A stretch of DNA of 64,000 bases, taken from Gammaproteobacteria bacterium. Lineage in GTDB: Bacteria > Pseudomonadota > Gammaproteobacteria > UBA4575. The notes beneath the pieces are model-generated. The model made no database searches, was not told where the DNA came from, and worked only from the letters and a program-made list of their open reading frames with translations. Both the position numbers and the translations under genes were made by a program. The stretch's first letter is position 1. Every line of letters begins with the position of its first letter. The stretch covers positions 544,001 to 608,000 of the forward strand of contig CBDCUI010000007.1 of NCBI GenBank assembly GCA_965222615.1, read 5' to 3'. Positions 8,850 to 61,295 of this stretch are shown piece by piece.

Positions 8850-9604
8850 TGTTTCGTTTTTGCTATTTCAATTAATTCGCTAACAGTTACTAGTCTTATA
8901 TTTTCTTTACCTAGTTTAGAAAGCTCTTGATCAAGTGCTTGCATGGTTGAATCATGAGGATGACCAATTGCTAGCGCATAGCCTTGATGTTTAGCAATTT
9001 TTATTAATCGTTTGATCTGCTTTTTCACAAATTCTTTATCATGTGCCTTAGTATCAAGAAAAACATCACGCACCAAGTTAGGAATATGGTATTCACTAGC
9101 AATATTGCCCGCAATGGTGCTGGCACTGGTTTTACTATCGATAAAGTATAAATAGTCATCTCGATTCGCGAGTGTTTGCATAAACAAGTCCATATGATCT
9201 TGATGCCGAGTTAATAAACTGCCCATGTGATTGTTAATACCGCGTGCATAAGGAACTGCGTCGATACTTGCATTGATAGTAAATATAAAGTCTTGTTTTT
9301 GCATGCCCATAGTCAATGCGCCATACCCAAGCTGTAGAGAATTATCTGCCTGCATGGGTAAATGCACCATCACCTCTTTACCTTTATGATGTGCAAGCTT
9401 TGCCAGTTCAATAGAATAAGGTCGCGCAGGTAGTATTGAACAGGTAATTTTCCAATCGGCATTGATGACGCGTTGACCTACACTGAGGCTATTACCCAAG
9501 TCGTCTATGATAATTGCTATGGCGGGTGAGCCAGCACTCACACCATTAAAAAGATGTACAAAAAATAAACTGGCGGCTATAGCCAGTCTATATAAATGTG
9601 TCAT
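8825..9604 (-). CDS. divergent polysaccharide deacetylase (YibQ family)
   Basis: IAIIIDDLG, HLPMQ, GINNHMGS, RDVFLD, AIGHPH. Confidence 0.92.
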   Translation of the reverse strand: MTHLYRLAIAASLFFVHLFNGVSAGSPAIAIIIDDLGNSLSVGQRVINADWKITCSILPARPYSIELAKLAHHKGKEVMVHLPMQADNSLQLGYGALTMGMQKQDFIFTINASIDAVPYARGINNHMGSLLTRHQDHMDLFMQTLANRDDYLYFIDSKTSASTIAGNIASEYHIPNLVRDVFLDTKAHDKEFVKKQIKRLIKIAKHQGYALAIGHPHDSTMQALDQELSKLGKENIRLVTVSELIEIAKTKQWQAYSSL

Positions 9605-9615
9605 GTAGTTACATA

Positions 9616-10968
9616 CTAGGTTGCAGTATTGCTAGTATAACTCACGCCTTTTAAAACTTTTAGTGCCTCGTCCAACGCATAATCCGTAGTATCGCTATCG
9701 GTTGCTTTTGGAATCGTTATGACTGATTTGGGCTTACGTACATCTTCCTCTTGACCCTCGTTCTCAAGATGGCCAGCTAAATCGGCCTCAGAAATACCAC
9801 CAAACCCTTTGTCTTTCTCTTCGTCTTCACCTTCTTCTTTTAATAAAATATCTGGAACAATTCCTTGGCTTTGAATCGACCTACCTGATGGCGTGTAATA
9901 CCGTGCAGTGGTCAATTTTAACGCAGCATTTTCTTTTAGCGGTAAAATAGTTTGTACAGAACCTTTACCAAAAGAAGTGGTTCCTAAAATAGTTGCACGT
10001 TCATGGTCTTGCATTGCGCCTGCAACAATCTCAGAAGCAGAAGCAGAGCCCTGGTTTATTAATACCACCAATCTTGCGCCATCAAGAGAATCACCCGTAC
10101 TTGCTGTGTACTTAAGCTCAGATTCTTCTACACGCCCCTCGGTATAAACAATTAGTTTATTGTCCTTTAAAAATACATCGGAAACCCCAACTGCACCCGT
10201 TAACACTCCGCCTGGGTTGTTACGTAAATCTAAAACCAATCCTTTTAGGTCTCCCTCATTTTTCTTTTTTAAACTATCAATTGCATTGAGTAAACCACGT
10301 GTAGTTTTAGATTGAAAATTAGAAATGCGCACATAACCATAACCTGGCTCAAGCATACGGCTTCTTACACTGCGCACACGAATAACATCTCGTGTTATAG
10401 ATATGTTAAGCGGAGCATCCTCGCCTTCACGCACAACGGTTAACTCAATTTTAGTCCCCTTCTTGCCCCGCATCAGCTTTACAGCTTCTTCCAAAGTCAT
10501 GCCTTTAACTGATTTATCATCTAACTTGATGATCAAATCACCTGCCTTTACTCCAGCACGTTCTGCTGGGGTATCATCAATGGGAGCAATAACTTTTACA
10601 AAACCACTCTCCATACCTACTTCAATTCCCAAACCACCAAACTCACCAGAAGTGCCAATTTGCAATTCACGAAATTGTTCTTCGTCTAAAAAAGCCGAAT
10701 GCGGATCAAGACCAGATAACATGCCACGAATGGCATTTTCTAAAAGCTCGCTATCGTCAACCTCAGTTACATAATCTTGTTTAATACGCGCATACACATC
10801 CGTAAAGACACGTAAATCTTCGAGCGGTAGTGCTGCAACTTTTTGTTTCTCTGCCCACACATTATGAGCCAAAGTCAGAGTAAACCCGAACACTAGACCC
10901 AACATCACTCCGATACTCATAGGGTGTTTATACTTCATCGCGACACTCCTAGACTGTAATTTTTCCAT
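9616..10968 (-). CDS. ctpA: carboxyl-terminal processing protease, S41 family
   Basis: LDPHS, PDZ GLGIEV, LDLRNNPGG, SASASEIVAG, FGKGSVQ. Confidence 0.95.
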   Translation of the reverse strand: MEKLQSRSVAMKYKHPMSIGVMLGLVFGFTLTLAHNVWAEKQKVAALPLEDLRVFTDVYARIKQDYVTEVDDSELLENAIRGMLSGLDPHSAFLDEEQFRELQIGTSGEFGGLGIEVGMESGFVKVIAPIDDTPAERAGVKAGDLIIKLDDKSVKGMTLEEAVKLMRGKKGTKIELTVVREGEDAPLNISITRDVIRVRSVRSRMLEPGYGYVRISNFQSKTTRGLLNAIDSLKKKNEGDLKGLVLDLRNNPGGVLTGAVGVSDVFLKDNKLIVYTEGRVEESELKYTASTGDSLDGARLVVLINQGSASASEIVAGAMQDHERATILGTTSFGKGSVQTILPLKENAALKLTTARYYTPSGRSIQSQGIVPDILLKEEGEDEEKDKGFGGISEADLAGHLENEGQEEDVRKPKSVITIPKATDSDTTDYALDEALKVLKGVSYTSNTAT

Positions 10969-11165
10969 CTAACCATCGCTCCATTATGAAAGGAAAATAT
11001 AGATACGCAATATATAAGACTGAACATTATTAAGGTTTAATCAAGTAAAAATGGTTCCAAATATTGGCTGTAATACTTAGATTATGGCTTAATTCGACAA
11101 AAATTTGCTTGAAATAAGTCACCTAGCACTGCAAATCCGACTACTGGATGATATTCAGCATCAAT

Positions 11166-47112: not shown

Positions 47113-47617
47113 TATGCTTAAACTAATAAAATATTCGCTACTGATTAGCATTTAGCAAAAATCAGGAACTTTGATTCGAAATCAAATTTGATTTAGAACT
47201 TGCTTGGAAATGGCATGAAAAATTAGAGGGGTGCCTTCCTTGGCTTTGGGGACTTCCTTACATTTATATGACAGTATTTCTTATTTTTAGTTCGCCGTAA
47301 TTCTCGAATAAGCTTTAACATCCGTGTTACATTTTCCTATTAAAATAAACTGCATGCCCACGTATAAAAGACCGTGGCATTAGTAATATTATTACTGATG
47401 ATTTTTAACCGCTATCCTGTATATGCCTGAATAAGGTACGAAAACTAAGGTTTTGTTAAGTTTACAATCTGTGTAGGAACTTATTCATTCACAGGCTTGT
47501 CATAGAGTTACAACTTTATTTGCCCTTCGTAATCCCAATTGCAGTATAGTGTGGACTTTAGCAAGTCTAAATGCCTGATAGGCTTGATTGTTTAAGCTAT
47601 AAGATGAATTTAGGAAT

Positions 47618-48355
47618 ATGGTGTATCGGCTAATATTTGTACTTGTTGTTGCGATAGGTATAGGAGCCTGCAGTAGCTCCTCGTCTGTCGGCCTGCCTAA
47701 AATCCCCAGTCCTTCATCCAGTGAACCACAAACTAGCTCTGAAGCAGCCGAAAAACAAGCCAAACAAACTGAACAAAGCAAGCCCTCTAAACAAGCAGAC
47801 AGTTCCAGCAGTAAAGAACAACAAGACGAGGCACCAGCAAGTGCTCAGACCGAAGAAGAAAAAGTAGCGGTACTCGACAAACAACTGGAAGAGGAATTGC
47901 GAAGTTACGATGAAGAATTACACAAAGAGCTAGAAAAAGCTGAAGCAGAAAAACAAGCTCAAGCTGCAGAACAAGAAGCCAAACAACAAGCCGAATTAGA
48001 ATCAGCAGAAGACGAAGCCATGGAAGAGGCTGGCGACACTGGTGAAGAACAGGAGTCTGGCCAACAAGGTGAACAAGTTGCTAAGGCGGGTTCACCCACC
48101 GCTGAACCTTCAGCCGATAGTGATGCAGGTGAGAACAGCCAATCAAGCACTGGAACACAAGACAAAGGCGCTACTGGTAGAACCCCAAAAGATATCCCAA
48201 GTGGTGACGATGATGATGTTGTCGCACGACAACTAAGAGAGGCAGCAGAAAAAGAACCTAACCCTGAACTTCGAGAAAAACTATGGGAAGAATATCGTAA
48301 ATATAAAAAACAACAAGCAAGTGTTAGTGCTCCAACCCCTAACGTAGAAAAATGA
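47618..48355 (+). CDS. acidic low-complexity lipoprotein
   Basis: Lipobox IGAC; S/E/Q-rich body; ordered C-terminal DIPSGDDDDVVARQLREAA..LWEEYRKYK. Confidence 0.8.
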   Translation: MVYRLIFVLVVAIGIGACSSSSSVGLPKIPSPSSSEPQTSSEAAEKQAKQTEQSKPSKQADSSSSKEQQDEAPASAQTEEEKVAVLDKQLEEELRSYDEELHKELEKAEAEKQAQAAEQEAKQQAELESAEDEAMEEAGDTGEEQESGQQGEQVAKAGSPTAEPSADSDAGENSQSSTGTQDKGATGRTPKDIPSGDDDDVVARQLREAAEKEPNPELREKLWEEYRKYKKQQASVSAPTPNVEK

Positions 48356-49536
48356 ACAAACAAGCAAGCCTTTTTCATCTTTTATTATTAATTCTCATTA
48401 GCAGCTTTCAGTTCAGCGGCTGTGCAACAAATACAGTAAAAGTTGATGGTGCAGAAAAAATAGAAACTGAAACTGTACAGTTACAAGAAGACAACTTGTT
48501 AGACGTGGGTATATTGTTGTTCGAAAAAGGTGAAATAACTGAAAAGCAAGAAGAAGATGAAGGCGTGCATGAAGACATACGTAAAGCCGAAGCACGTTAT
48601 ATGGCTTATCACCTTAAAGAAACGATGCAACGCGCCAATGGCTGGGGGGCCATTCGTGTGTTACCAACGGAATCGCAAATAGCCGATGTGATTGTACGCG
48701 GTACAATTATTTCCTCTAACGGTGAAGAATTAATAGTAAAAATGAACATCGTTGATAGCACAGGTCAGTTATGGTTTGAAAAAACCTATAAAACTGCTGC
48801 CGATGAAGAATCTTATCGTTATGCAAAACCTGGCAGAGATGTTTATCAACATGTTTATAACCGTATAGCAAATGACATACGCAAACATCGAAAAAAATTA
48901 ACCGAAAAAGAAACTATCACGATTAGAAATACTTCTGAATTGCGCTATGCAGCAGGCCTTTCACCCGATCCATTTGCAAACTATATTGATTCTGGTCCAA
49001 ATGGACAAAACACTATTGCACGATTGCCCGCTTCTAACGACCCAATGTTAAATCGCGTGCGTAAAGTTAGAGAACGTGAGTTTTTATTTGTTGACACTAT
49101 AAATGAGCATTACTCAAACTTTTACAATGAAATGTGGGACCCTTATGAGAATTGGCGAAAGTTTTATTTAATAGAAGCTGAACAACGACGTGAAGTAGAA
49201 CGACGCGCTAATCAAACAAAATTTATTGCTGCAGTGGTAATGATAGCAGGTATCTTTAGAGGGCCTGGTTTATTCACTACTGGAGCACTTTTATATAAAA
49301 ACGGAATGGATATAAGTAATGAAGCCGATATTCACGATGAGGCCATTCGTGAGCTCGGTGACTCTCTGCAGGCTGAAGTTAGCCCCTTGGTTGTAGAGAT
49401 ACAAGGACAAACTGTTGAGTTGACTGGTTCGATTGAAGAGCAATACCAGAAGTGGCGCAAGTTACTACGCGAAATTTATATTAATGAAACCGGTTTTGCC
49501 TTAGACGACAGCACAACAGAAAGCGCACAACTTTAG
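48352..49536 (+). CDS. lipoprotein of unknown function
   Basis: Lipobox FSGC; overlaps the previous stop (ATGA). Confidence 0.8.
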   Translation: MNKQASLFHLLLLILISSFQFSGCATNTVKVDGAEKIETETVQLQEDNLLDVGILLFEKGEITEKQEEDEGVHEDIRKAEARYMAYHLKETMQRANGWGAIRVLPTESQIADVIVRGTIISSNGEELIVKMNIVDSTGQLWFEKTYKTAADEESYRYAKPGRDVYQHVYNRIANDIRKHRKKLTEKETITIRNTSELRYAAGLSPDPFANYIDSGPNGQNTIARLPASNDPMLNRVRKVREREFLFVDTINEHYSNFYNEMWDPYENWRKFYLIEAEQRREVERRANQTKFIAAVVMIAGIFRGPGLFTTGALLYKNGMDISNEADIHDEAIRELGDSLQAEVSPLVVEIQGQTVELTGSIEEQYQKWRKLLREIYINETGFALDDSTTESAQL

Positions 49537-49589
49537 CTCGTGTGTTCTACGCGCGTAACCTAAGCGCACTAAACTGAATTTTAAAAACT

Positions 49590-49806
49590 TAAGGAAACAT
49601 TGATTTATTAGCGATAGCGACTGAGACTAGGCAAAAATGTCGAGACAAATTTGCCAGGAGCAAATTTGGGAGGCTCTGCTAGCCGCAGGCCGAGCACCAG
49701 GAAGGTGCGAGTCAAAGTAGAGTTTACACATTTGTTTGCGGCTTCGCCCGCCCCGCATTTTGAGACATTTTTTAACGATGGATCAGAATAAATTAGAGTT
49801 TGCTTA
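49590..49806. mobile_element. MITE, ~217 bp, with nested GGA-loop hairpins
   Basis: Ends TAAGGAAACATTGATTTATT and (reverse complement) TAAGCAAACTCTAATTTATT; no ORF; same ends elsewhere in the window. Confidence 0.7.
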
Positions 49807-49828
49807 GTCTGGTTTGCACCTGGGTGCT

Positions 49829-51352
49829 ATGGAAAAACAAGATCCCACTCCTATTGAAGCGATTGACTTTACATCGCTAAACAAACATACAGAAAAAACT
49901 AAACCTGCTGAACAGATATCGGTAGGTAAAAACTCTAAATTGTGGTTGGCTTTTTTACTTCTCATCACCTGTGCTATTGGAGTATTTGTATTTCTGCCAA
50001 ACTTTGTACCAAAAAAGCAAGTTACGATTTCTCCTCCATCAAATACACCCATCGAAGCAGAACAAACACCAGAAATAACTGAACCTATAATAGAAGAATC
50101 TACAAAGTTATCAGCTGCAGAGCTAAGTAAACTCAAGGCTGAAACTGAGGAACTATTACTTCAAGTAATCAAGAAACAGGAATTACTACAGTCAAAAGGG
50201 ATTGAAAAATGGGCCAAGGAAGAATTCTCACAAGCTAGTTCTTATGCAACAACAGGTGATGAATATTTTCGTAAACAACAATATCCAGATGCAATAAATT
50301 CCTACCAACAAGCCATCGATGCCTTGCAACTCTTAGAAGATAATGTTGCACCCACCTTAGCCAAACACTTAGAGCAAGGTGAACACGCATTATTACAAGC
50401 CAATCGTGAAACAGCATTGTTTCATTTTGAGCTTGCTCAGGCGATTGACGCAGAAAACACACAGGCACTTAATGGTATAAAACGTGCTGAAACCATTGAA
50501 GAGCTATTTAAATTATTAGAACAGGGTGGAAATCTAGAAGCCGCAAATCGACTTGAAGATGCCAAACAAATTTATCAACAAGCCTTTGATTTAGATCCCT
50601 TATCCATTGAGGCAAAGACCGCAATTGCAAGAGTCTCAAAGCGTCTAGTTGAAATCAAATTCACTCAATTAATTGCGTCAGGCTATAGCTCTTTGGAAGC
50701 TAAGCAATTTAATGATGCACGCAAAGCATTCCTAGCCGCACAGAAACTAATGCCATCTTCCGAAAAAGCTAAGCAGGGTTTAAAAAAAGTAGCAACTGCA
50801 GTTCGCCGAGAGAAAATTTCCACTTTGACGGTTGAAGCTCAACATTTTGAAAACCTTGAAGAGTGGGAACATGCAATGCAAAGCTACCAACAGATTCTCA
50901 GCCTAGACTCGGCTTCCTCATTTGCGCAAAACGGTGTTGAACACAGTCAAAAACGAGCTGCTCTATTGCGAAATCTCGACGACTATCTCAAAAACCCTGA
51001 ACGATTATATTCTGAAGACGTTGCCAAAGAAGCAGGGAACTTATTAAATAAGGTTGCATCTTTACAAACACCTGGTGTGAAAATTTTGCAACGAGCTACC
51101 ACATTAAAAGAATTATTGGCTAGTGCCAGTCAGCCAGTCTCCATTATTTTACAGTCAGATAACCAAACCGATGTAGTAATATTTAAGGTTGGAAAGTTCG
51201 GTCGTTTTGAAAGTCATAAAGTAGAGCTTAAACCTGGTAAATATACTATCGTTGGATCGCGACCAGGATATCGAGATGTTAGAAAAGTGTTAACGATTAC
51301 TGCTGACATGACAAACAAAAATATTTTAGTTCGTTGCGAGGAACCAATATAA
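49829..51352 (+). CDS. membrane-anchored TPR protein with C-terminal PEGA-like domain
   Basis: One TM, several TPR-like helix pairs (YQQAFDLDP, YQQILSLD), C-terminal LKPGKYTIVGSRPGYRD. Confidence 0.8.
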   Translation: MEKQDPTPIEAIDFTSLNKHTEKTKPAEQISVGKNSKLWLAFLLLITCAIGVFVFLPNFVPKKQVTISPPSNTPIEAEQTPEITEPIIEESTKLSAAELSKLKAETEELLLQVIKKQELLQSKGIEKWAKEEFSQASSYATTGDEYFRKQQYPDAINSYQQAIDALQLLEDNVAPTLAKHLEQGEHALLQANRETALFHFELAQAIDAENTQALNGIKRAETIEELFKLLEQGGNLEAANRLEDAKQIYQQAFDLDPLSIEAKTAIARVSKRLVEIKFTQLIASGYSSLEAKQFNDARKAFLAAQKLMPSSEKAKQGLKKVATAVRREKISTLTVEAQHFENLEEWEHAMQSYQQILSLDSASSFAQNGVEHSQKRAALLRNLDDYLKNPERLYSEDVAKEAGNLLNKVASLQTPGVKILQRATTLKELLASASQPVSIILQSDNQTDVVIFKVGKFGRFESHKVELKPGKYTIVGSRPGYRDVRKVLTITADMTNKNILVRCEEPI

Positions 51353-51396
51353 ATTTTCAAGTTCTACTGCAAATAATTAACTACGTGTAATAGGAA

Positions 51397-53799
51397 ATGA
51401 TTAAACAAGTATGTGTAACGGATATTGGTGGGCCAAGATTTTATACTCATGCAGATTTTCCTCTTGCGATTGGGACGCACCCTGGGGCTGATATTCACAT
51501 CGAAAGCGACAATTCATCCTCACCTATTGCCTTTTTAATCATTATTGTCAATCGCACTTATATTGAAACGGAAAACAACTATGCCGATATATTAATTAAT
51601 AATGAGCGTGTAGTCGGCCAGCAAGAATTGCAGCATGACGATATCTTGCAAATTGAAAATACAACATTTCATTGTGAGCATATCGGCGACACTCTTTCTA
51701 TTTCTCTATATGATGATCAAGAGCATCTTGTTGCAACTGATCATGATGTTGCCTCTCACGGTGATTTAATTGAGCCAATTGAATTAAAAGAAGCATACCA
51801 AATACCAAAAAAGAACAAACTGGCTCGTTTATTATCAATTTTAGTTTTATTAGTTTTTGCGCTACTAGCTTTAGTCATTGGTTATATCTTTACAGCAAAA
51901 TCTCTATTAATCGAAATTGAACCGAAGCCAGACAGTGTTGCTTTAAGTGGAAAAATCTGGCCTTTAAAAATTAAGCACCGATACATCGTACAACCTGGAA
52001 AATATGCATTAGAAGTAAAAAAATCAGGTTATTACCCATTACAAGAGGAAATTAAAGTCACTCACCATCAAGCGCAAAGCCTATCCTTTGCGCTGAAAAA
52101 AAAGCCCGGTTACTTAAAAATAAATAGTCACCCCAGTGATGGTGTTCGTATTCTCATTGATGAAAAGGAATATGGAACCACGCCACTGGAAGAAATTGAG
52201 TTAGATGCTGGCTCTTATTCCGTACAAGCCTCTATTGATGATTATCAACTCTATACCACCCAGCTGGTCGTCGAAGGTAAAGAGCAACACCAAGAATTAA
52301 GCATAGAGCTGCTACCAAATTGGGCTGAAATATCGATTAACTCCAAACCTGGTAATGCTGAAGTTTGGATAAATGGAATGAACAAAGGCACCACGCCTTT
52401 GAAGCTAGATTTGCAAGCAGGTAGTTATACATTGGAACTACGTCATTCAGATTATTTACCCTATACATCTGATTTCTTAGTGGTTGCAAACGAACCTCAA
52501 GAATTGCCCTTAGCTGAGTTATTTAGCAACCCTAGTCATTTAGTCATCACTAGCGTCCCCTCTAAAGCCAAAGTATTACTGGCAGGTATTGAACAAGGCA
52601 TAACACCTTTAACTTTACGTTTAAACCCAAATACTGAACATTCTTTAACACTTAGCAGAGCCGGATTTAGGGATAATCAACAAACTGTTTTATTGAAACC
52701 AGGAGAACAGTCAACGCTTTCTGCTGAACTTGAAGCAATATTAGGGACAGTAGTATTCAATATACAACCGCAGGACTCTGAAGTATTTATTAATGGTAAA
52801 TTTACTGGTAGCGGTAACGTAAAACTTTCGCTCCCGAGTAGTCCACATAGAATAGAGGTTAGAAAGTCAGGTTATGAAGTTTTTGAAAAAATGATTACAC
52901 CTACAGCAGACTCGCCACAAATATTTGATGTGGTCTTAAATCGTATCACTAGTGCCACCAAGACCGATAAACCTAGTTTGATCCAAACTAGTCAGGGACA
53001 GGAATTAAAATTAATTTTTGGTGGCAAATTTTCTATGGGTGCTGCACGTCGTGAACAGGGTCGCCGTTCCAATGAAACTCTACACACCGTTGATCTACAG
53101 AGGCCTTTTTATATAAGTACAAATGAAGTTTCCAATGCACAATTTTTAGAGTTTAACCGCACACATAACTCTGGAATCTATAAAGGTAATGATTTATCTA
53201 GATCAAACCTACCGGTTGTGAATATAGAGTGGAATGATGCTGCAAAATATTGTAATTGGCTGAGTGAAAAAGAAGGTTTAGATAAGGTGTATAAACAAGA
53301 AGGTAATCAGTTAAAAGCCATCCATCCCATTCCTAACGGTTATAGGCTACCAACAGAAAGTGAATGGGAGTGGGTTGCACGCGTACAAGCTAGTGGCAAT
53401 ACACAAAGGTATATTTGGGGAGATACCTACCCGCCAAAGCAAGTTGTCGCGAACTTCGCCGATGTGTCAGCGGCAACGATATTAGATAGCGTAATCGAGG
53501 ACTACGATGATGGTTTCGCCATCAGTGCTCCGGTAAGAAGCTTCAAGTCTAATCACTTGGGAATTTTCAATCTAGGCGGTAACGTAGCAGAATGGTGTCA
53601 CGACTATCACAGTATTTACCCCAGCTTAAGTGACAAAGTATTTGTCGATCCCAGTGGTCCTTCGACAGGGGTAAATCACGTGATACGTGGTGCCTCTTGG
53701 ATGAGTGGAGATTTAAGTAGTACTCGCTTGAGTCACCGAGACAGAGCCAACAAAAAACGTGTTGATGTTGGCTTCCGTATCGCTAAATACATAGACTAA
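51397..53799 (+). CDS. FHA-like / TM / PEGA repeats / FGE-sulfatase-domain protein
   Basis: 4-5 PEGA repeats (INSKPGNAEVWING..GTTP); FGE motifs EVSNAQF, PVVNIEW, YRLPTESEWE, GNVAEW, GFR. Confidence 0.88.
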   Translation: MIKQVCVTDIGGPRFYTHADFPLAIGTHPGADIHIESDNSSSPIAFLIIIVNRTYIETENNYADILINNERVVGQQELQHDDILQIENTTFHCEHIGDTLSISLYDDQEHLVATDHDVASHGDLIEPIELKEAYQIPKKNKLARLLSILVLLVFALLALVIGYIFTAKSLLIEIEPKPDSVALSGKIWPLKIKHRYIVQPGKYALEVKKSGYYPLQEEIKVTHHQAQSLSFALKKKPGYLKINSHPSDGVRILIDEKEYGTTPLEEIELDAGSYSVQASIDDYQLYTTQLVVEGKEQHQELSIELLPNWAEISINSKPGNAEVWINGMNKGTTPLKLDLQAGSYTLELRHSDYLPYTSDFLVVANEPQELPLAELFSNPSHLVITSVPSKAKVLLAGIEQGITPLTLRLNPNTEHSLTLSRAGFRDNQQTVLLKPGEQSTLSAELEAILGTVVFNIQPQDSEVFINGKFTGSGNVKLSLPSSPHRIEVRKSGYEVFEKMITPTADSPQIFDVVLNRITSATKTDKPSLIQTSQGQELKLIFGGKFSMGAARREQGRRSNETLHTVDLQRPFYISTNEVSNAQFLEFNRTHNSGIYKGNDLSRSNLPVVNIEWNDAAKYCNWLSEKEGLDKVYKQEGNQLKAIHPIPNGYRLPTESEWEWVARVQASGNTQRYIWGDTYPPKQVVANFADVSAATILDSVIEDYDDGFAISAPVRSFKSNHLGIFNLGGNVAEWCHDYHSIYPSLSDKVFVDPSGPSTGVNHVIRGASWMSGDLSSTRLSHRDRANKKRVDVGFRIAKYID

Positions 53800-53803
53800 A
53801 GAT

Positions 53804-54046
53804 ATGAAAACTCAAAAAACCCTATTACTTATACTTATATCATTTGTATTTTATACAAGTAACCATTTTGCAATCGCAGAAGAAGCTACTACAGAAAAAA
53901 ACCAAGACACAGTTGAAGATGAAAGCACTACTGCTAGGCCAAAAATCAGTTCAAAGAAACGCAGCGAAGTTAAAAATTTGGAAGAATTTATTCCAAGTGA
54001 AGAAGTCTCCGCAGATAAACCAATTTCTTTCCCAATAGATATCTAG
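53804..54046 (+). CDS. small secreted protein
   Basis: Signal peptide, flexible linker, C-terminal EEFIPSEEVSADKPISFPIDI. Confidence 0.75.
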   Translation: MKTQKTLLLILISFVFYTSNHFAIAEEATTEKNQDTVEDESTTARPKISSKKRSEVKNLEEFIPSEEVSADKPISFPIDI

Positions 54047-54052
54047 TTAATA

Positions 54053-54850
54053 ATGAAAAAACATTATCCCTTTGAGTTTATATATCAAGTTTTTAGCTTA
54101 TTGATAATTGTAATCATTGTACATGCTGCATATGTCGCAGTAATTCGTCCTAATGCCGAAGCCGAACTGGAACAACAAGCTGCACAAATTAATATAGACA
54201 AAAACTATGTGCCAAAGCGTTCAATATATGTGTTGATACGCGACTATGAGCAAGAAGCATGTTTCATTCTAATGTTTTGGGCATTAGTAATTATGTCTTA
54301 TAAAGCAGCTAATTTATTTCGCGAACGCAGCTTACTTGAAAAAGACATATTACATGCCAAAGATGGCATGAAATTTTTACCACAAGACACACGCGAATTA
54401 TCCAGACAAATACAAAATCTACCTGAAGAAGAACATAATTATTTACTACCGCGTGCATTACAAGTTGCTCTACATAGATTTAGCTCCACGAAAAATATCC
54501 AAGACGTTTCATCAGCAACTAATATAGTTTGTGAATCAGAATCAGAACGTCTTGACTCTGAGTTATCAATTATCCGTTACATCACTTGGGCAATTCCCTC
54601 CATAGGATTTCTAGGAACCGTTCGTGGCATTGGTGATGCACTTGGACAAGCGCATAAAGCAGTAGAAGGAGATATAGCTGGTGTAACAGAAAGCTTAGGT
54701 GTGGCATTTAATTCAACACTTATTGCTTTGTGCATTAGTATATTCTTGATGTTTATTGTGCATCAGTTACAACTCCTACAAGAGAGGTTTATTTTAGATA
54801 CACAAAATTACTGCAACAACAATTTAATACGCCACCTACAAGTTCCATAG
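54053..54850 (+). CDS. MotA/TolQ/ExbB proton-channel family protein
   Basis: WAIPSIGFLGTVRGI and LGVAFNSTLIAL motifs with conserved Pro/Thr. Confidence 0.92.
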   Translation: MKKHYPFEFIYQVFSLLIIVIIVHAAYVAVIRPNAEAELEQQAAQINIDKNYVPKRSIYVLIRDYEQEACFILMFWALVIMSYKAANLFRERSLLEKDILHAKDGMKFLPQDTRELSRQIQNLPEEEHNYLLPRALQVALHRFSSTKNIQDVSSATNIVCESESERLDSELSIIRYITWAIPSIGFLGTVRGIGDALGQAHKAVEGDIAGVTESLGVAFNSTLIALCISIFLMFIVHQLQLLQERFILDTQNYCNNNLIRHLQVP

Positions 54851-54860
54851 CATCAGATAT

Positions 54861-56201
54861 ATGACGGCTGTAGTTGTTGATTTATATGATAGTGGTGTAC
54901 TAATTTGCGATGGAAATCGTATTCTTGCCAATAGTGCAAGCTTCGCTTTAATTGAATCTGATAACACCATCATTGTTGGTGAAACTGCTCAACAACAAGC
55001 ACACATTCGCCCACGGGAAATCAGTACACAATTTTGGCAACAACTGTCAAAAACTAGTAATACCAAGCACGTTGTAAGCAATGCTGAGATTGCATGTAGG
55101 CATTTGCAATACGTATGGGAACAGATTGAAGATCAAGCATATCAAGTCATTTTAGCCATTCCCAATGTATTAACTAAGCAAGATTTAGGGCTATTACTAG
55201 GTATTTGCGAAAAACTTTGCATAGCCGTTGCTGGCATTGTCAGTAAATCTGTACTTGCCCTGCATGGATATGCAGATGACTGTCGTGTTGTTTACCTAGA
55301 TATTTTACAACAACAAATCATCATTACAGAAATACTGCATAAAAAATCAAGCATATCAACATCAGATTCCAATTTATTTATAGACAACGGTATTCAACAT
55401 TTAACAAATAACCTAGCAAAACACATTGCCAAGAAATTTATTGCTGAAACGCGTTTTGACCCCTTACATGTTGCAGAAGATGAACAACTCTTTTATGACA
55501 AATTAGCCATGTGGTTATACCAGTTAGAATCAAGTGACAGTATACAATGCAGTTTAAGTTCAAGCTCTGGCGAATACCATGTTGAGATTCATAAAGACTA
55601 CTTATTGCTCTGCAATAAGAAAACATTTGATGCTATTGCTAATAGTTTAATGTCATTTGCGCAGGATCAAAAAAATGTCCTTATCATTTGTTCACCTACA
55701 TGTTTATCAATATTTGGATTACTCGATCATTTAATGTCACTTCCTGGCTGTGCGGTAAAAACCCTAAGCCACATCGATTTAGCTAAGCAAGCATTGCTTT
55801 ATGAAAATCAGATTAGCGCCAAAAGTGCTCAAATACATTACACAACATCACTTACTGACCAGGATTTGGCTTCGCTTGATTTAAACTTTAATTCTGGATC
55901 TTTATCAGATTTAAACAAAAAGCCTACACATCTACTAATAAACCATCATGCATATTCGCTTTCACAAACAAATTATCTGGCACAAGATAAACAAGGAGAG
56001 ATAACTATAGGCCTAGAATGCAGTCAAAGTAGTGTATGCAAAATCACGATGAATCAATTTTTAGTAAATGTTGAAAAAACGCAAAATGTGAAGCTTCATT
56101 TAAATGGAGTTGAAATTACGCAGCAACAATCTGTACAAATCGGTGACCGTCTGAGTATCAACAAAGATACTAATGAGCTATTTTTTATTAATGTGAATTA
56201 A
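54861..56201 (+). CDS. degenerate Hsp70/actin-fold protein with C-terminal FHA-like domain
   Basis: VVVDLYDSG..SFAL..IIVGETAQQQA, ILAIP, VVYLDI; C-terminal LHLNG..VQIGDRLSI; fold inferred by eye. Confidence 0.55.
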   Translation: MTAVVVDLYDSGVLICDGNRILANSASFALIESDNTIIVGETAQQQAHIRPREISTQFWQQLSKTSNTKHVVSNAEIACRHLQYVWEQIEDQAYQVILAIPNVLTKQDLGLLLGICEKLCIAVAGIVSKSVLALHGYADDCRVVYLDILQQQIIITEILHKKSSISTSDSNLFIDNGIQHLTNNLAKHIAKKFIAETRFDPLHVAEDEQLFYDKLAMWLYQLESSDSIQCSLSSSSGEYHVEIHKDYLLLCNKKTFDAIANSLMSFAQDQKNVLIICSPTCLSIFGLLDHLMSLPGCAVKTLSHIDLAKQALLYENQISAKSAQIHYTTSLTDQDLASLDLNFNSGSLSDLNKKPTHLLINHHAYSLSQTNYLAQDKQGEITIGLECSQSSVCKITMNQFLVNVEKTQNVKLHLNGVEITQQQSVQIGDRLSINKDTNELFFINVN

Positions 56202-56202
56202 T

Positions 56203-57294
56203 ATGAAGCGAAGATCTGTCAATGCATTTAGTTTAGCTTTTTTGGATGTGATGTTTTGTGGATTTGGTGCGGTCATCCTATTTTTTATGATCATTAACGC
56301 TAATACTTATGAAAGAAGGGAAAAAATTAATGTTGTCGTTACTGGCGAGGCTGAAAAACTAGATGCTGAAGTTTTAGAAGGAAAAAAATTTCTTGTTGAG
56401 CTTAAAAACACACTGCAAAAAATAAATGAAGAGTTGGTGAAAACTCAAGGGCGCTCAAAAGAAGTCATTGAAAACATTACTGACAAAAAAGTTCAAATCG
56501 CACTACAACGCAAAGAAACCCTTGCTACGATCGAACAAATAAATAAGCTCAAGGCAGATTTAAAAGCACTTGAGGAGGCGAACCAGCGGCTAGAGGGCGG
56601 TGCTGCGAATGCACAATCACAAGGTGAACGGTTAAGATATTTTGCTGGGCAAGGGCAACGACAATATTTAACTGGCTTAAAAATGGGTGGCGAACGCATT
56701 TTGATTTTGGTTGATACATCCGCCAGTATGCTAGCAGATCGGATTATCAATATTTTACGTTTTCGCAATCTACCACAGACGGAAAGAATACGAGCAGCAA
56801 AATGGCAACAAGTATTGTACACCGTTGATTGGATCACTACGCGCATACCACCCTCTAGTAAATTTCAGATCTATACATTTAATGAGACCAGTTCGCCTGT
56901 TTATACAATAGAAGGTTCGCAGTGGTTAGACGGTGGCAATATTAAACATTTGAATACGGCTGTAGATAACTTCTTCGCAACTGCCCCAAATAAAGGGACA
57001 AGTCTATTAAATGCATTTCAGAGCATAAATAAACTTTCTCCACCACCCGATAACATTTATTTACTCACTGACGGGTTACCCACGCAAGGTGCGAACAAAT
57101 CAATTCGCTCAAAGATTAGCGCTAAGGATCGTAAAAAACTTTTTAATAAAGCCCTAAACAAACTGCCAACTGGCATACCCATTAATATAATTTTATTCCA
57201 TATGGAAGGAGATCCAGAGGCATCAAGCTTGTATTGGAAACTCGCGCAAAGATCCAATGGCGCATTTTTCAGTCCTTCCAAAGATTGGCCTTAG
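56203..57294 (+). CDS. ExbD-like TM, coiled coil and VWA domain protein
   Basis: FSLAFLDVMFCGFGAVILFFMI; MIDAS DTSASM; GTS; LLTDGLP. Confidence 0.85.
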   Translation: MKRRSVNAFSLAFLDVMFCGFGAVILFFMIINANTYERREKINVVVTGEAEKLDAEVLEGKKFLVELKNTLQKINEELVKTQGRSKEVIENITDKKVQIALQRKETLATIEQINKLKADLKALEEANQRLEGGAANAQSQGERLRYFAGQGQRQYLTGLKMGGERILILVDTSASMLADRIINILRFRNLPQTERIRAAKWQQVLYTVDWITTRIPPSSKFQIYTFNETSSPVYTIEGSQWLDGGNIKHLNTAVDNFFATAPNKGTSLLNAFQSINKLSPPPDNIYLLTDGLPTQGANKSIRSKISAKDRKKLFNKALNKLPTGIPINIILFHMEGDPEASSLYWKLAQRSNGAFFSPSKDWP

Positions 57295-57302
57295 TAAGAA
57301 AA

Positions 57303-58310
57303 ATGAAAAAACGTAGAAATATAGAAATATTTAACCTGTCTTTCTTAGACTGTGTTTGCTGCGGGTTCGGCGCACTTATACTGCTATTAGTACTATCAAA
57401 AACTGCAGAACCGATTATCTTCGAAGAGTACAGTAAGAATTTAGACAAGGTCGTAGCTAAACTTCATGAAGAACTCTATGAAATACGTGGTGAAACTCAT
57501 ATCCTGAACCGCGAATTGGTGAGCAAGAAAGAACAGCTTGCCCTTGAAGTTGAAAAGATCGCACGCCTGCAAGGTGATTTATCCTCTATTCTAGGACAAT
57601 TTTCGGCGTCAAAAGATGATGCAGTCATACAAAATAAAATTGAAGGACAACTTGCATCAGCTAAGCAGGATCTCACTGAAGAAATACGCCGTTTACAAGA
57701 ACAAGAGTTGCCACAACGCAGTGAGCCAGATGCCACTGTTGGAGGAATCCCTATTGATAGTGAATATATTATTTTTATTATCGATACATCTGGAAGTATG
57801 CAAAATCACGGTTGGGGCACTGTGCAACAAAAACTCCGTGAAGTATTAAATGTGTACCCAAAAGTAAAAGGTATGCAAGTGATGAATGACATGGGTGAAT
57901 ATATGTTTTCACAGTACACTGGTAAATGGATTCCAGATACGCCTGCGCGACGCAAAGTAGTGTTAAAACGTCTACGTAATTGGCAACCATTTAGTAACAG
58001 TAGTCCAGTTGAAGGAATCACGGCTGCAATACGAACTTTTTACTCTAAAAACAAAAAAATTAGTTTATACGTATTTGGCGATGAATTTACTGGCCCATCG
58101 ATACAATCTGTACTGCGCGAAGTAGACCTTATCAATAAAAAAGACAAATTTGGAAATCGTCGTGTTCGTATTCATGCAGTAGGCTTTCCTATTCAATTCA
58201 GTCGACCAGAAAGAGAACAAATTACTGGAATTCGGTTCGCCACGTTAATGCGTGCCCTGTGTGAACAAAACGGTGGAACATTTGTTGGATTGACTTCTCA
58301 TAGCCGTTAG
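57303..58310 (+). CDS. second ExbD-like TM, coiled coil and VWA domain protein
   Basis: FNLSFLDCVCCGFGALILLLVL; MIDAS DTSGSM; VFGDEF; RIHAVGF; ATG 57303 preferred. Confidence 0.85.
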   Translation: MKKRRNIEIFNLSFLDCVCCGFGALILLLVLSKTAEPIIFEEYSKNLDKVVAKLHEELYEIRGETHILNRELVSKKEQLALEVEKIARLQGDLSSILGQFSASKDDAVIQNKIEGQLASAKQDLTEEIRRLQEQELPQRSEPDATVGGIPIDSEYIIFIIDTSGSMQNHGWGTVQQKLREVLNVYPKVKGMQVMNDMGEYMFSQYTGKWIPDTPARRKVVLKRLRNWQPFSNSSPVEGITAAIRTFYSKNKKISLYVFGDEFTGPSIQSVLREVDLINKKDKFGNRRVRIHAVGFPIQFSRPEREQITGIRFATLMRALCEQNGGTFVGLTSHSR

Positions 58311-58326
58311 AGAGGTTATTCAAACT

Positions 58327-58483
58327 TAAGGGGTCTCTGATTAATTCAGAGGTTCTGCGATACAAGGACTTGCCACCAAAATCGATGATCACAGACCGTT
58401 GATTTTGAAAGCAACGTAGAAATCACATTTTTTTACATTGCATGCGCTGAGAATTCATGAATGAATTATGCAGAGCTTCCTTA
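58327..58483. mobile_element. MITE, ~157 bp
   Basis: Ends TAAGGGGTCTCTGATTAATTCA and (reverse complement) TAAGGAAGCTCTGCATAATTCA. Confidence 0.7.
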
Positions 58484-58605
58484 ACAATTTAGCAGCGACT
58501 AGTTTACTGCTGCATATTGTGATTAACTGATTGAAGTAACATAGTTTTATATTAATTCTTACTTTTTCTAGCAAAATAAACACGAAACCCCTAATTCATT
58601 TTATC

Positions 58606-59232
58606 GTGAGAAATATACCATTCACATCTTCAAAACCGTCTTATCTATTCAAGGAGTACAAAATGTCACCACTTAACGTTTATCAAATTTTGAATTTCAA
58701 ACGGTTGGGAAATTTTAAAAGTATTTGCGGCTTACTATGCCTAACATCGCTTATTTTAATTGCATGTGGTGGAAACAATAATGAAACACCTGCTACAACT
58801 GAAGAATCTACAACTTCTTCTGTTCAAGTAGAACAAGCTAGCGACAGTGATATTGTCGCAGAGGTACATGCCAATAAAGAAAAATGGTTATCAAATGAAA
58901 TTAAACAGTATGAAATTGAAATACAGAAAATATGTTTTTGTGAACCAGATGCTGTTCGTTTAATGATATTCCATGTAGAGAATAATGAAATACAAGATGT
59001 ACGTTATGCAGATTCTGGTGAACAGGTAGATCCTAGTCATTATAACGAATTAAACACAATAGAAGGAATGTTTACATTAGTGGAACAAGCATTAGATAAA
59101 AACCCTGCAGATATTAGCATTGCTTATGATACAGAGTATGGTTACATTAAAGAACTTACTGTTGATTACCATGAAAATATAGCGGACGACGAGTTCACAT
59201 TTATTGCTTCTAATATGAAACAGAAAAAATAA
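58606..59232 (+). CDS. lipoprotein (DUF6174-like)
   Basis: Lipobox LIAC; W...I..Y...CFC, TIEGMF, YD..YGY, IADDE; start may be 58663. Confidence 0.75.
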   Translation: MRNIPFTSSKPSYLFKEYKMSPLNVYQILNFKRLGNFKSICGLLCLTSLILIACGGNNNETPATTEESTTSSVQVEQASDSDIVAEVHANKEKWLSNEIKQYEIEIQKICFCEPDAVRLMIFHVENNEIQDVRYADSGEQVDPSHYNELNTIEGMFTLVEQALDKNPADISIAYDTEYGYIKELTVDYHENIADDEFTFIASNMKQKK

Positions 59233-59261: not shown

Positions 59262-61295
59262 ATGAAAAAAATTTTTTTAGCTATAGTATTTATTTCACTA
59301 TTTACCCTTTTAAGTACAGCCCATTCCAACCAAACTCTCCCTATAGAAATAAATGGTGAAAGTTATCAAATTAAGTATTGGCCTAGCTATTTCGCTAAAG
59401 AACTAGATATAAATTACGTAGGTACTGATAAAGCTGATGCAGATAAAATAGATATCAGTTTTTATCGTGGCGAAGTCGTTGGTCATCCGGATTCACTGGT
59501 CACTCTTTCTAAAGCCGGTGATGATTTAAATGGCTTAGTATTCTTTTATGGTGAATACCATGAGATTGCTGGCACCATGTCTAAGTTAAATAATCAGTCA
59601 AACACTTCTATGCGAAGTGCAAAAATCCAGATCGCAGATATGGCGAAAAATGTGACACAAGAAATGTGCCCGATTCATACCCATGAACACCAAGAAATGC
59701 AAGCGACTGCTATGGTAACCATGGATACGAACACGAATGGTTTGCCTCCCATTGCATTTGCAGTTGGTAATGTAAATTTGGTCGCCGATGTTGCTTTGGC
59801 TTTAGACCCACAATATGTTTCCGTACATGGTGGCGCGACGAATGCTGTAATTAGAGCATTAGGAACGCTTGATAGGGCTGATATGTTTTATCGTCAAAAC
59901 AAACCCGCTACGGGGGCAGGTGGCTTGGGCATCGCGCTTAATAATGTAAGTGTCAATGTATACGCCAATACATTACCGTTTAATGTTGCCGATATCATCG
60001 ACGCCAGTCCCGATCTCAGTAACGGCTCGCGTCCTGAAATAGACGCCACCGCATATTTAACTAGAATTCAAGCTAACGGTGCAGCATTGTTTGGAAACAC
60101 ACGTACCGTAGGGGCCATGTTTAGTGGTTATGACTTAGACGATACTACTGTAGGTGATGGCGTCGCAGGACTGGCTTTTATTGCAACCACTTGTAGCAAT
60201 CTAGGTGTGAGTGTTTCAGAGGGTTGGGGTACCGAGGCCGCATCTGCTGTAATCACCGCACATGAAATTGCCCATAATTTTGGATCTTGTCATGATGGAG
60301 ACGGTATCCTAAATGCAGGACTAAATCTCTGTCCGGTTACCTCTGTTACTTGCCCTGCGAATGGTGGTTTTATTATGGCGCCATTTGTTAATGCGGTTGC
60401 TACACAATTTTCGCAGTGCTCTATTGCTAATATCGATTCTCACGCAAATCTACAAACCTGTTACAAACAGCCTATCGATATGCAAATTAGCTTACAAAAT
60501 GTTACCCCTGCCGTTAACAATACATTAAATCAAGGTGGCACAAGTGTACGAACATTTAGTGTAAGTAATATGGCTGATGTAATCCTCAGCAATATTAATA
60601 TCTCTGGCACATTAGCAAATCTTAGTGATCCCAATAATCCCAATACACAATATAGTGCAGTCACCTTAGAAGGCAACGCCTGTAGCATTGCGGCAAATGC
60701 TCAGTCTTATATTTGTTCGATTCCAACCATTGGTGCCAACAATGCCGATGTTCAACAAATCGTCGAAACCGTCACAGCTATAGGTACTGGCCAATATAAA
60801 TCTACAACCGAATACCGAAATGTCGTTGCCAATCAGCAAGTAGACATCGAACCACAAAATAGTATTGTAGAGCTAACGCAAGTTATTAATGTAAATGCGG
60901 CGGCTGCACCTCCTGCAGCACCGAGTAATGTACAAGCCATCGCATTATCCACTGGAGACATTCAAGTAAGCTGGACCGATAACAGTAACAATGAGGCTGG
61001 TTTTATTATTGAACGTAGTGAAGATGCGGGCGTAATGTATACGGTTATTCAAAATAACATTGCGGCAAATACTACAAGCTATGTAGACACCAATCTTGTT
61101 GAAGGCACGACCTATACGTACCGCGTCTCGGCAAGTAATAACATGGGCGCAGTAGTCGCAGCTAGTACACCAAGTGCTACCTCTTCTACCAACGCTGTTA
61201 TTTCTTCTGGTGGTGGTGGCGGAGGAGGTGGTGGTGCTTTTTATATTTTGTCATTGTTTTTGTTACTAGCACGAACTTTAACAAGGTCTAAATAA
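59262..61295 (+). CDS. M12B reprolysin-like zinc metalloprotease with FN3 and GlyGly-CTERM
   Basis: AGLAF, HEIAHNFGSCHD, Met-turn FIMAP, FN3 SWTDNSNNEAGF, GGGGGGGGAF-TM-basic tail. Confidence 0.9.
   Translation: MKKIFLAIVFISLFTLLSTAHSNQTLPIEINGESYQIKYWPSYFAKELDINYVGTDKADADKIDISFYRGEVVGHPDSLVTLSKAGDDLNGLVFFYGEYHEIAGTMSKLNNQSNTSMRSAKIQIADMAKNVTQEMCPIHTHEHQEMQATAMVTMDTNTNGLPPIAFAVGNVNLVADVALALDPQYVSVHGGATNAVIRALGTLDRADMFYRQNKPATGAGGLGIALNNVSVNVYANTLPFNVADIIDASPDLSNGSRPEIDATAYLTRIQANGAALFGNTRTVGAMFSGYDLDDTTVGDGVAGLAFIATTCSNLGVSVSEGWGTEAASAVITAHEIAHNFGSCHDGDGILNAGLNLCPVTSVTCPANGGFIMAPFVNAVATQFSQCSIANIDSHANLQTCYKQPIDMQISLQNVTPAVNNTLNQGGTSVRTFSVSNMADVILSNINISGTLANLSDPNNPNTQYSAVTLEGNACSIAANAQSYICSIPTIGANNADVQQIVETVTAIGTGQYKSTTEYRNVVANQQVDIEPQNSIVELTQVINVNAAAAPPAAPSNVQAIALSTGDIQVSWTDNSNNEAGFIIERSEDAGVMYTVIQNNIAANTTSYVDTNLVEGTTYTYRVSASNNMGAVVAASTPSATSSTNAVISSGGGGGGGGGAFYILSLFLLLARTLTRSK

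Follow-up and report, generated by a model that had tools for sequence, protein, structure and literature searches.

Ion-driven motors built from five outer and two inner subunits (5:2) power the flagellum, the Ton and Tol systems, gliding, type 9 secretion, and Zorya defence. Among their inner subunits, MotB ends in an OmpA-like peptidoglycan-binding domain, and in the GldL/PorL-GldM/PorM motor of type 9 secretion 2 helices lie within a pentamer and a long periplasmic stalk reaches the outer-membrane-associated GldK/PorK complex. Here, we analyze a stretch of 64,000 nucleotides from a Gammaproteobacteria bacterium (assembly GCA_965222615.1, contig CBDCUI010000007.1, positions 544,001 to 608,000; the whole stretch is hereafter the window, and positions are counted from its first letter), in which 2 adjacent genes, A and B, each encode a membrane helix with an invariant Asp, a helical stalk and a vWA domain. 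We consider it probable, although not by a wide measure, that their products form the inner part of such a motor.

The closest described proteins are the "TPH-vWA" proteins, a computational prediction (Mol Biol Evol 2025;42:msaf138, PMC12204202). As described in that paper, these are membrane-tethered vWA proteins with a TolR/ExbD-like helix that carries a conserved Asp and no SHLS/His motif. Their genes are tightly linked to tolQ homologues with no tolR or exbD gene, and mostly form heterologous pairs. The TolQ-like protein has conserved Thr residues, and AlphaFold 3 models place the Asp pair in a Thr ring. The main text lists the family from Proteobacteria and Verrucomicrobia, states that its function is unknown, reports no deletion phenotype, and proposes the vWA heads as the motor output. 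A second point of comparison is the Agl-Glt model, in which AglQ and AglS, 2 unlike TolR-like proteins, form a heterodimeric plug in the AglR pentamer (PMC11761067).

A and B belong to the TPH-vWA family as it is described there, by shared features and not by alignment with the Idiomarina reference proteins of the paper (PMC12204202). These features are the vWA domain tethered by a single helix, 1 helix Asp per subunit, unlike pairs, and no His motif; the context agrees as well, i.e. linkage to a tolQ-like gene with no ExbD-family gene, and conserved Thr residues in the partner. The cluster names seen for the A family are Desulfofustis and Puniceicoccaceae, and the Puniceicoccaceae member found here fits the Verrucomicrobia listed in the paper. 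A full-text literature search returned 1 paper with the A/B architecture, the same PMC12204202, and found no experimental work on the family.

A paralogous pair with an invariant Asp in the membrane helix

Gene A (56203-57294, forward strand) encodes 363 amino acids, arranged as a basic N-terminal tail, a transmembrane helix, a helical stalk, a flexible linker and a vWA domain, and its N-terminus reads MKRRSVNAFSLAFLDVMFCGFGAVILFF. Gene B (57303-58310, forward strand; 335 amino acids) has the identical layout and the N-terminus MKKRRNIEIFNLSFLDCVCCGFGALILLL. The mechanical list of open reading frames (ORFs) opens B at a TTG at 57234; we place its start at the ATG at 57303 (MKKRRNIEIF...), 8 nt past the stop codon of A, because many orthologous B ORFs begin there. 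Each N-terminus starts with several basic residues and continues as F-[SN]-L-[AS]-F-L-D-x-x-x-C-G-F-G-A-x-I-L, which is precisely the pattern that the original prediction had claimed from the letters of the window.

BLASTP aligns only the N-terminal halves of A and B (28% identity, E 2e-14), and an hhalign comparison of the 2 families runs end to end (probability 100%, E 9.6e-42, 321 columns). This profile alignment pairs D15 of A with D16 of B, DTSAS with DTSGS, and D290 with D260, which indicates that A and B are paralogues over their whole length. NCBIfam holds no family that we could find for either protein, and both fall only in their own unnamed clusters or in vWA clusters of the Protein Atlas. 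Searches of A and B against Pfam return vWA and coiled-coil-type families only, with no OmpA-like peptidoglycan-binding domain and no match to ExbD/TolR (PF02472) at E <= 0.1.

The conservation of the 2 proteins was scored as the mean frequency of the top residue. For A, a search of 1.84 billion representatives at 50% identity yields 1355 matches at E <= 0.001, 266 of them at E <= 1e-30; the alignment holds the A of the window and 105 of the 150 best representatives, the other 45, fragments or long forms outside 330-385 amino acids, having been left out. The B alignment has 71 rows, i.e. the B of the window and 70 orthologues cut from related loci. Second alignments of 52 (A) and 34 (B) sequences were used for checks.

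The transmembrane helix of A spans 56227-56295 on the forward strand (residues 9-31) and contains Asp15 (codon 56245-56247) and the cluster Cys19-Gly20-Phe21-Gly22-Ala23, while that of B spans 57330-57398 on the same strand (residues 10-32) with Asp16 (codon 57348-57350), Cys17, Cys19, and Cys20. Asp15 is present in 93 of the 93 A rows that have a residue at this position, the other 13 rows starting later and being gapped there. Its neighbors are kept almost as strictly: Cys19 in 94/99 rows, Gly20 in 97/99, Gly22 in 99/99, and Leu26 in 100/100. For B, Asp16 and Cys20 are each found in 71/71 rows, Cys19 in 60/71, and Cys17 in 49/71. The Asp is also invariant in both second alignments. Within the A helix, L11, D15, C19, G22, and L26 share one helical face (20-100 degrees), and the equivalent residues of B do likewise.

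In both proteins the helix is the most conserved region. For A the score is 0.76 in the helix, 0.34 in the stalk, 0.54 in the vWA domain, and 0.48 over the whole protein, and for B it is 0.88-0.89 in the helix against 0.69 overall. As an internal control, the anchors of 2 other single-pass proteins encoded nearby, of 800 and 512 amino acids, score 0.41 and 0.44, no higher than the means of their own proteins. The original prediction had made its case depend on the conservation of the Asp and of the metal-binding motif discussed below, and both are borne out by these family alignments.

Basic residues followed by a hydrophobic stretch that holds Cys could also mark a cleaved signal peptide or a lipoprotein leader, in which case the mature proteins would be soluble or lipid-anchored periplasmic vWA proteins. 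A leader of this type would, however, have to accommodate an invariant Asp in a hydrophobic stretch of 23 residues that is the best-conserved part of the protein. Positions 32-35 of A are variable and hold no conserved small-x-small site, so that a conserved cleavage site is missing, and in the model of A the stretch runs into the stalk as a single helix. The lipobox rules are not satisfied either, since the Cys is preceded by Phe in A and by Cys in B. We regard a leader as scarcely credible, and the view of the original prediction that the N-terminus is retained stands.

Stalks and vWA heads

An AlphaFold2 model of A, computed from the 52-sequence alignment, has a mean predicted local distance difference test score (pLDDT) of 84. 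Residues 8-131 form a single continuous helix; a linker of low confidence follows at about 130-152, and an alpha/beta domain modelled with confidence occupies about 160-363. The stalk of A (56296-56595, forward strand; residues 32-131) is a heptad-periodic helix. In both A and B the stretch after the membrane has its best hydrophobic period at 3.5 residues, a result reached by about 1% of 2000 shuffles (1.05% for A). The long coiled coil that had been proposed for the 2 proteins is thus well matched by the modelled helix and by the heptad period. When the A and B alignments are searched as profiles against the PDB, only the stalks give matches, which are weak and mostly to well-known coiled-coil proteins. 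The best of these weak matches is, for both stalks, chain B of 8qox, a "conserved membrane protein" of 475 residues (E 0.003-0.007), which may reflect mere coiled-coil likeness.

Foldseek assigns the alpha/beta domain of A to vWA domains, with ITIH1 as the best match (E 8.2e-8) and the bacterial vWA structure 4fx5, CLCA1, and LapA among the others. The matches also include BatB (3ibs, E 1.5e-6) and 4jdu, as well as the ArnB-type vWA structures 8s05 and 5a8j. In Pfam, VWA_2 scores 22.5 bits with the A of the window and 21.1 bits with B, both under the cut-off of 27 bits; 1 orthologue of A (P0077) passes it with 36.2 bits, and 20 of 34 B orthologues match VWA_2 at E <= 0.01. The vWA assignment of B thus draws on its homology to A and on the VWA_2 matches of its orthologues, which together suggest the same fold.

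Both heads carry the residues predicted to form a metal-ion-dependent adhesion site (MIDAS), with a DxSxS motif and a downstream Asp kept in both families. In A the motif is D171-T-S173-A-S175 (56713-56727, forward strand), with further MIDAS positions at T266 and D290. Conservation reaches at least 90% at D171, S173, S175, and D290; for T266 it is at least 70% in the 106-row alignment and at least 90% in the 52-sequence one. In B the motif is D161-T-S163-G-S165 (57783-57797, forward strand), and D161, T162, S163, G164, S165, M166, and D260 are invariant among the 34 sequences. The Thr position of A aligns with a stretch S-N-S-S in B, and the metal site of B may therefore differ from that of A. 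As such, the vWA domain with DxSxS of the original prediction is recovered in both proteins, through Foldseek for A and through homology and VWA_2 for B.

The channel partner and the proposed motor

A gene upstream of A (54053-54850, forward strand) encodes a MotA/TolQ/ExbB-like channel protein of 265 amino acids, presumed to form a pentamer. It matches the Pfam family MotA_ExbB (PF01618) with E 9.5e-15 and 54.9 bits (cut-off 22.9), but its scores stay under the equivalog cut-offs of both TolQ and ExbB, so that it cannot be called TolQ or ExbB proper. Its residues T189, T222, and P182 are at least 90% conserved among 68 sequences and align with T145, T178, and P138 of Escherichia coli TolQ in a gap-free block. 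T189 and T222 correspond to the Thr ring described around the Asp of the inner subunits (PMC12204202). PADLOC gives the channel protein a weak ZorA-type match (E 1.2e-4), and none of its defence models match A or B.

Gene order was compared in 80 loci gathered by likeness to A, from Gammaproteobacteria metagenome-assembled genomes (MAGs), Desulfobacterales, Kuenenia, Thermodesulfovibrionia, Woeseiaceae, Rhodospirillaceae, and Steroidobacteraceae, with each gene counted over the loci that have enough flanking sequence. One of them (L054) belongs to Lentisalinibacter sediminis, a cultured environmental species. Selection through A and the close kinship of many loci mean that the counts show linkage and not independent events. 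B lies directly downstream of A in 68/68 loci, and the MotA-like gene, whose product is 56-95% identical across loci, lies upstream of A in 65/67.

A profile built from 29 ExbD/TolR sequences of the same genome and its relatives recovers all 6 ExbD genes of that genome (E 3.5e-52 to 6.2e-8). These lie at four places (contigs C8 and C9; loci L087-L092), each beside a MotA_ExbB gene, and the MotA-like gene of the window has no ExbD gene adjoining it. With the same profile we find no ExbD-family gene on either strand of the 80 loci (1.14 Mb; best E 0.85 and 1.7), a result that covers the ExbD profile only, as no search for MotB-type OmpA domains was made there. At the 2 places with 2 ExbD genes each, one gene of the pair has Asn and the other the helix Asp.

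Taken by position, context and conservation, A and B fit the role of ExbD. We think it somewhat more probable than its rivals taken together that they are 2 unlike inner subunits, i.e. the axle or plug, in a 5:2 motor that belongs to the TolQ/ExbB/MotA type and is driven by protons, with the MotA-like protein as the outer pentamer, and, with the same restrained preference, that they take the place held by ExbD, TolR, MotB, or AglQ/AglS in the known motors. Both would sit with their N-termini in the cytoplasm, an orientation we assign because of the basic N-tails alone (R3 in 67/93 and R4 in 80/93 rows of the A family; K2, K3, R4, and R5 in B), and with their helices inside the Thr-lined pore of the pentamer. 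The invariant Asp, near the cytoplasmic end, would take up and release protons, and the proton flow would rotate the pentamer with respect to A and B. Past the membrane, both chains would extend through the periplasm, first as a stalk that, at about 100 residues, would measure about 15 nm if fully helical, then as a flexible linker, and would end in 2 vWA heads towards the outer membrane. The metal-ion sites of the heads could bind a carboxylate on a partner located close to this membrane, and the proton flow would thereby pull, turn, or hold the bound partner.

The likeness to ExbD/TolR (PF02472) is one of layout: a single-pass protein with a short basic N-tail, an Asp near the cytoplasmic end of the helix, and a gene beside an ExbB/TolQ-type gene. 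The hydrophobic-Asp-Val-hydrophobic pattern of A and B also resembles the ExbD genes of the same genome. By contrast, A and B carry the extra C-G-F-G-A cluster one turn past the Asp, their periplasmic part is a 100-residue helix with a vWA domain and not the small ExbD domain, and both unlike subunits keep the Asp, whereas 2 of the 6 ExbD paralogues of the genome show Asn. With MotB/PomB, A and B would share an inner dimer with an Asp helix inside a MotA-type pentamer and a periplasmic end that holds something, but they differ in lacking a Pfam match to the OmpA-like family. The comparison with GldM/PorM is close on paper, with helices in a pentamer and a long periplasmic stalk, but the searches made here found no homology between those proteins and A or B.

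Several results weigh against the motor reading. Pfam has no match at E <= 10 to either protein when only its first 40 or 60 residues are searched. Profiles of the N-termini, run against 9737 ORFs of the same genome, match only A and B, with no ExbD gene in the top 25. When A and B are compared by hhalign with the 29-sequence ExbD alignment, the probability is 0.4-2% (E 0.03-0.16), and the alignment requires a five-residue gap at C-G-F-G-A. In the window, A has 3 Lys/Arg on either side of the helix, so that the positive-inside argument for A rests on its family consensus and on B. Two Steroidobacteraceae MAGs (loci L066 and L074, at about 9001-11131) hold the A-B pair alone, with no other gene of the surrounding cluster within 9 kb upstream, and these pairs keep the helix Asp. 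Homology of the A and B helices to ExbD/TolR is thus undetectable by sequence comparison, and membership of the ExbD family fails.

In favor of the motor reading, the best local alignment in 3 of the 4 hhalign comparisons sets the Asp of A or B on the ExbD Asp (F-L-D-V-M on L-I-D-V-V), although at a non-significant level. The ExbD profile gives A and B orthologues in the loci E values of about 1-6, and A and B are outside its 14 best matches in their own genome. A complex prediction for residues 1-160 of A and 1-150 of B, run without controls, reached a median score of 0.30 against a mark of 0.32 and counts neither for nor against a heterodimer. The original prediction of a motor core with a vWA output survives in part. 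The invariant Asp, the MotA-like gene at nearly all loci, the missing ExbD gene, and the published prediction speak for it, but the comparison of the N-termini with ExbD profiles, which it had proposed as a check, gave no significant similarity. For this reason, and because we infer the 5:2 assembly, the heterodimer, the insertion into the pentamer, the proton binding, the periplasmic location, and the acidic ligand, the motor interpretation is only partly supported.

The absence of significant ExbD similarity would agree with another reading, in which A and B are ordinary anchored periplasmic vWA adaptors that stand beside the MotA-like protein, with a helix conserved for some other cause, e.g. 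packing against another membrane protein. BatA and BatB of Bacteroides are regarded as being of this type, with a vWA fold on a membrane anchor, and we know of no motor gene partner for them. The presence of such anchored bacterial structures among the fold matches (3ibs and 4jdu) and the 2 loci that carry the pair with no MotA-like gene nearby point the same way. Plain anchors in the same operon are, however, not conserved, and an adaptor of this kind gives no reason why both paralogues should bury an invariant Asp on the conserved face of their helix. It would also leave the MotA-like gene with no inner partner in 65 loci. We judge the adaptor role improbable.

An inverted topology is a further alternative. 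ArnA, an FHA protein of Sulfolobus, has the vWA protein ArnB as its partner, and the gene directly upstream of A encodes a protein with an FHA domain; the vWA domains of A and B could then be cytoplasmic and be read by this FHA domain, and the ArnB-type structures 8s05 and 5a8j are among the fold matches of A. The N-tails are, however, short and strongly basic, which places them in the cytoplasm by the positive-inside rule, and 6 of 71 loci yielded no FHA protein. An inverted arrangement thus appears very improbable, and we retain periplasmic heads on a motor as the preferred reading.

The wider gene cluster and its distribution

About nine genes (47618-58310), all on the forward strand, make up a conserved cluster that is kept across phyla and closes with the A/B pair. 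The cluster opens with 2 overlapping genes for putative lipoproteins. The first (47618-48355; 245 amino acids) is acidic and of low complexity, with a conserved C-terminal segment at residues ~198-230 that is kept in distant loci (..D-D-V-A-R-Q-L-R-E-A-A..D-P-x-L-R..L-W-x-E-Y). The second (48352-49536; 394 amino acids) has a Cys after a hydrophobic leader; it matches no known family, and no Pfam family is common in its Protein Atlas clusters. These are followed by a single-pass TPR protein (49814-51352; 512 amino acids; Pfam TPR_2, E 7e-11, and a weak C-terminal PEGA match, E 0.012) and by a single-pass protein of 800 amino acids (51397-53799) with an anchor, five PEGA repeats, and an FGE-sulfatase-type domain (Pfam PEGA, E 9.3e-55 over 5 stretches; FGE-sulfatase, E 5.8e-42).

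The C-terminal domain of the 800-residue protein also matches the GldK/PorK model (E 7.3e-30), which adds to the likeness on paper to the GldM/PorM system, but at 104.6 bits it is far under the family cut-off of 350, and so the match reflects a shared domain only. Its N-terminal 120 residues or so are absent from the orthologues of many loci, including Desulfobacterales and Kuenenia. An FHA domain read by eye in this N-terminal part was rejected, as 0 of 10 orthologues match any Pfam family there at E <= 0.01.

Between the FGE-sulfatase gene and the MotA-like gene lies a gene for a small secreted acidic protein of 80 amino acids (53804-54046). The C-terminal 19 residues (53987-54043) read F-I-P-S-E-E-V-S-A-D-K-P-I-S-F-P-I-D-I, a motif that can be written as F-x-[PS]-[ST]-[EQ]-x4-[DEG]-x2-[VI]-x-F-P-x-[DN]-I-stop. 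Of the 65 loci that hold both flanking genes, 64 have in this gap a small ORF that ends in the motif, a figure that describes the data and is no blind test, because the pattern was written after the sequences had been seen. Its residues F1, F15, P16, and I19 are invariant in 64/64 cases across phyla, and a six-frame search of the same genome finds the motif once. The 80-residue protein is a candidate ligand for the metal sites of the vWA heads or for the TPR protein.

Between the MotA-like gene and A, a gene at 54861-56201 encodes a protein of 446 amino acids with no predicted membrane segment, with the fold of an Hsp70-type nucleotide-binding domain and a C-terminal FHA domain. Its AlphaFold2 model (pLDDT 91.3) consists of the Hsp70-type nucleotide-binding domain and a beta domain, and the best Foldseek matches are DnaK, Ssb, and BiP (E ~1e-17). 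The FHA family of Pfam is matched by 19 of 40 family members (best E 1.2e-13) but not by the copy in the window, for which we found no Pfam match of its own. DnaK has a Gly-rich second phosphate loop, and no such loop is evident at this place in the family consensus; the protein may therefore be a non-catalytic scaffold.

The other genes are found with A at similar rates, i.e. the 446-residue protein in 65/71 loci, the PEGA/FGE-sulfatase protein in 56/58, the TPR protein in 53/55, and the 394-residue lipoprotein in 50/52. In one locus (L070) the MotA-like gene directly precedes A, with no gene for the 446-residue protein between them. An apparent fusion of these 2 genes in another locus (L053) is not genuine, because the junction contains a stretch of N, and the sister locus (L059) has 2 genes. 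A scan of 47200-58800 for promoters and terminators gave no excess over shuffled sequence, with 19 promoter-like sites against a mean of 32 and 10 terminator-like sites against 7.9. Downstream of B lie genes for a putative lipoprotein (58606-59232) and for a secreted protein of 677 amino acids (59262-61295) with a zinc-protease-type motif H-E-x-x-H, a poly-Gly run, and a hydrophobic C-terminal tail; both are probably outside the core cluster, because they are conserved only in closer relatives.

Among relatives, 23 of 41 genomes have a match (the genome of the window counted), including 21 of 24 in its own family. Two matches are held by 22 of these 23 genomes, that of the window (G000) included, and in every case with both places listed they are neighbors. 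Of 401 genomes sampled evenly across the phylum, 19 match at E <= 1e-15, again counting that of the window. The A/B system is thus widespread but patchy.

The makeup of the cluster invites 2 further proposals. The first extends the motor reading: A, B, and the channel would be the engine of a complete envelope-spanning machine of about nine genes, conserved in several phyla and so far undescribed as a system, made of the 2 lipoproteins, the TPR protein, the PEGA/FGE-sulfatase protein, the small secreted protein, the channel, the Hsp70-like/FHA protein, A, and B. Its heads, an "integrin on a rotary motor", would use their metal sites to grip either an acidic segment of the lipoproteins or the near-universal C-terminal peptide (F-x-P-S/T-E ... 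F-P-x-D/N-I-COOH) of the co-encoded small periplasmic protein. Powered by proton flow, they would capture this ligand at the outer membrane, pull on it, and release it again in repeated cycles. We offer this machine as a tentative possibility. The Agl system of Myxococcus is likewise an envelope-spanning machine that uses FHA domains, TPR proteins, and a vWA adhesin, but there AglQ and AglS are TolR-like and the vWA protein, CglB, is a separate adhesin of the outer membrane (PMC11761067).

The second proposal keeps the same 5:2 complex but fixes A and B like MotB, so that the vWA heads would serve as anchors and the pentamer would drive single-pass partners bound to its rim, as with TonB, TolA, and GltG, or the cytoplasmic Hsp70-like/FHA protein. 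The PEGA/FGE-sulfatase and TPR proteins would be the rim partners. Two further conserved single-pass proteins and a conserved non-membrane protein are indeed encoded near the motor gene, and in the Agl-Glt model GltG binds the AglR pentamer through its membrane helix and the adjacent FHA domain (PMC11761067). The anchors of these candidates are, however, the poorly conserved ones of the internal control (0.41 and 0.44), and they hold no His and so lack the His-bearing SHLS-type motif described for rim-bound transducers. The gene for the 446-residue protein was moreover not found in 6 of 71 loci, and the MotA-like gene of L070 stands directly before A. We hold a fixed A/B pair to be unlikely. 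The helices of A and B contain no His either, as expected of inner subunits in the TPH-vWA prediction, and vWA heads that act as the probable output remain the arrangement we prefer.

The prediction of the TPH-vWA family came first (PMC12204202), and A and B are a further instance of it. Hsp70, sulfatase, PEGA, and MIDAS are terms absent from the main text of that paper, and for this reason we take the wider cluster, the conservation of the MIDAS, and the motif of the small protein not to be discussed there. Relative to that main text, the nine-gene cluster, the Hsp70-like/FHA fold, the PEGA/FGE-sulfatase protein, and the 19-residue motif are new.

The motor interpretation of A and B is a reasonable one, which has been published independently as a prediction (PMC12204202). 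If it is true, this class of motors would gain an additional type of output, through inner subunits that carry metal-dependent binding heads at their ends. The A family is large, with its 1355 representatives at 50% identity, and spans several phyla, and the conserved gene set and the 19-residue motif offer candidate ligands for the system.

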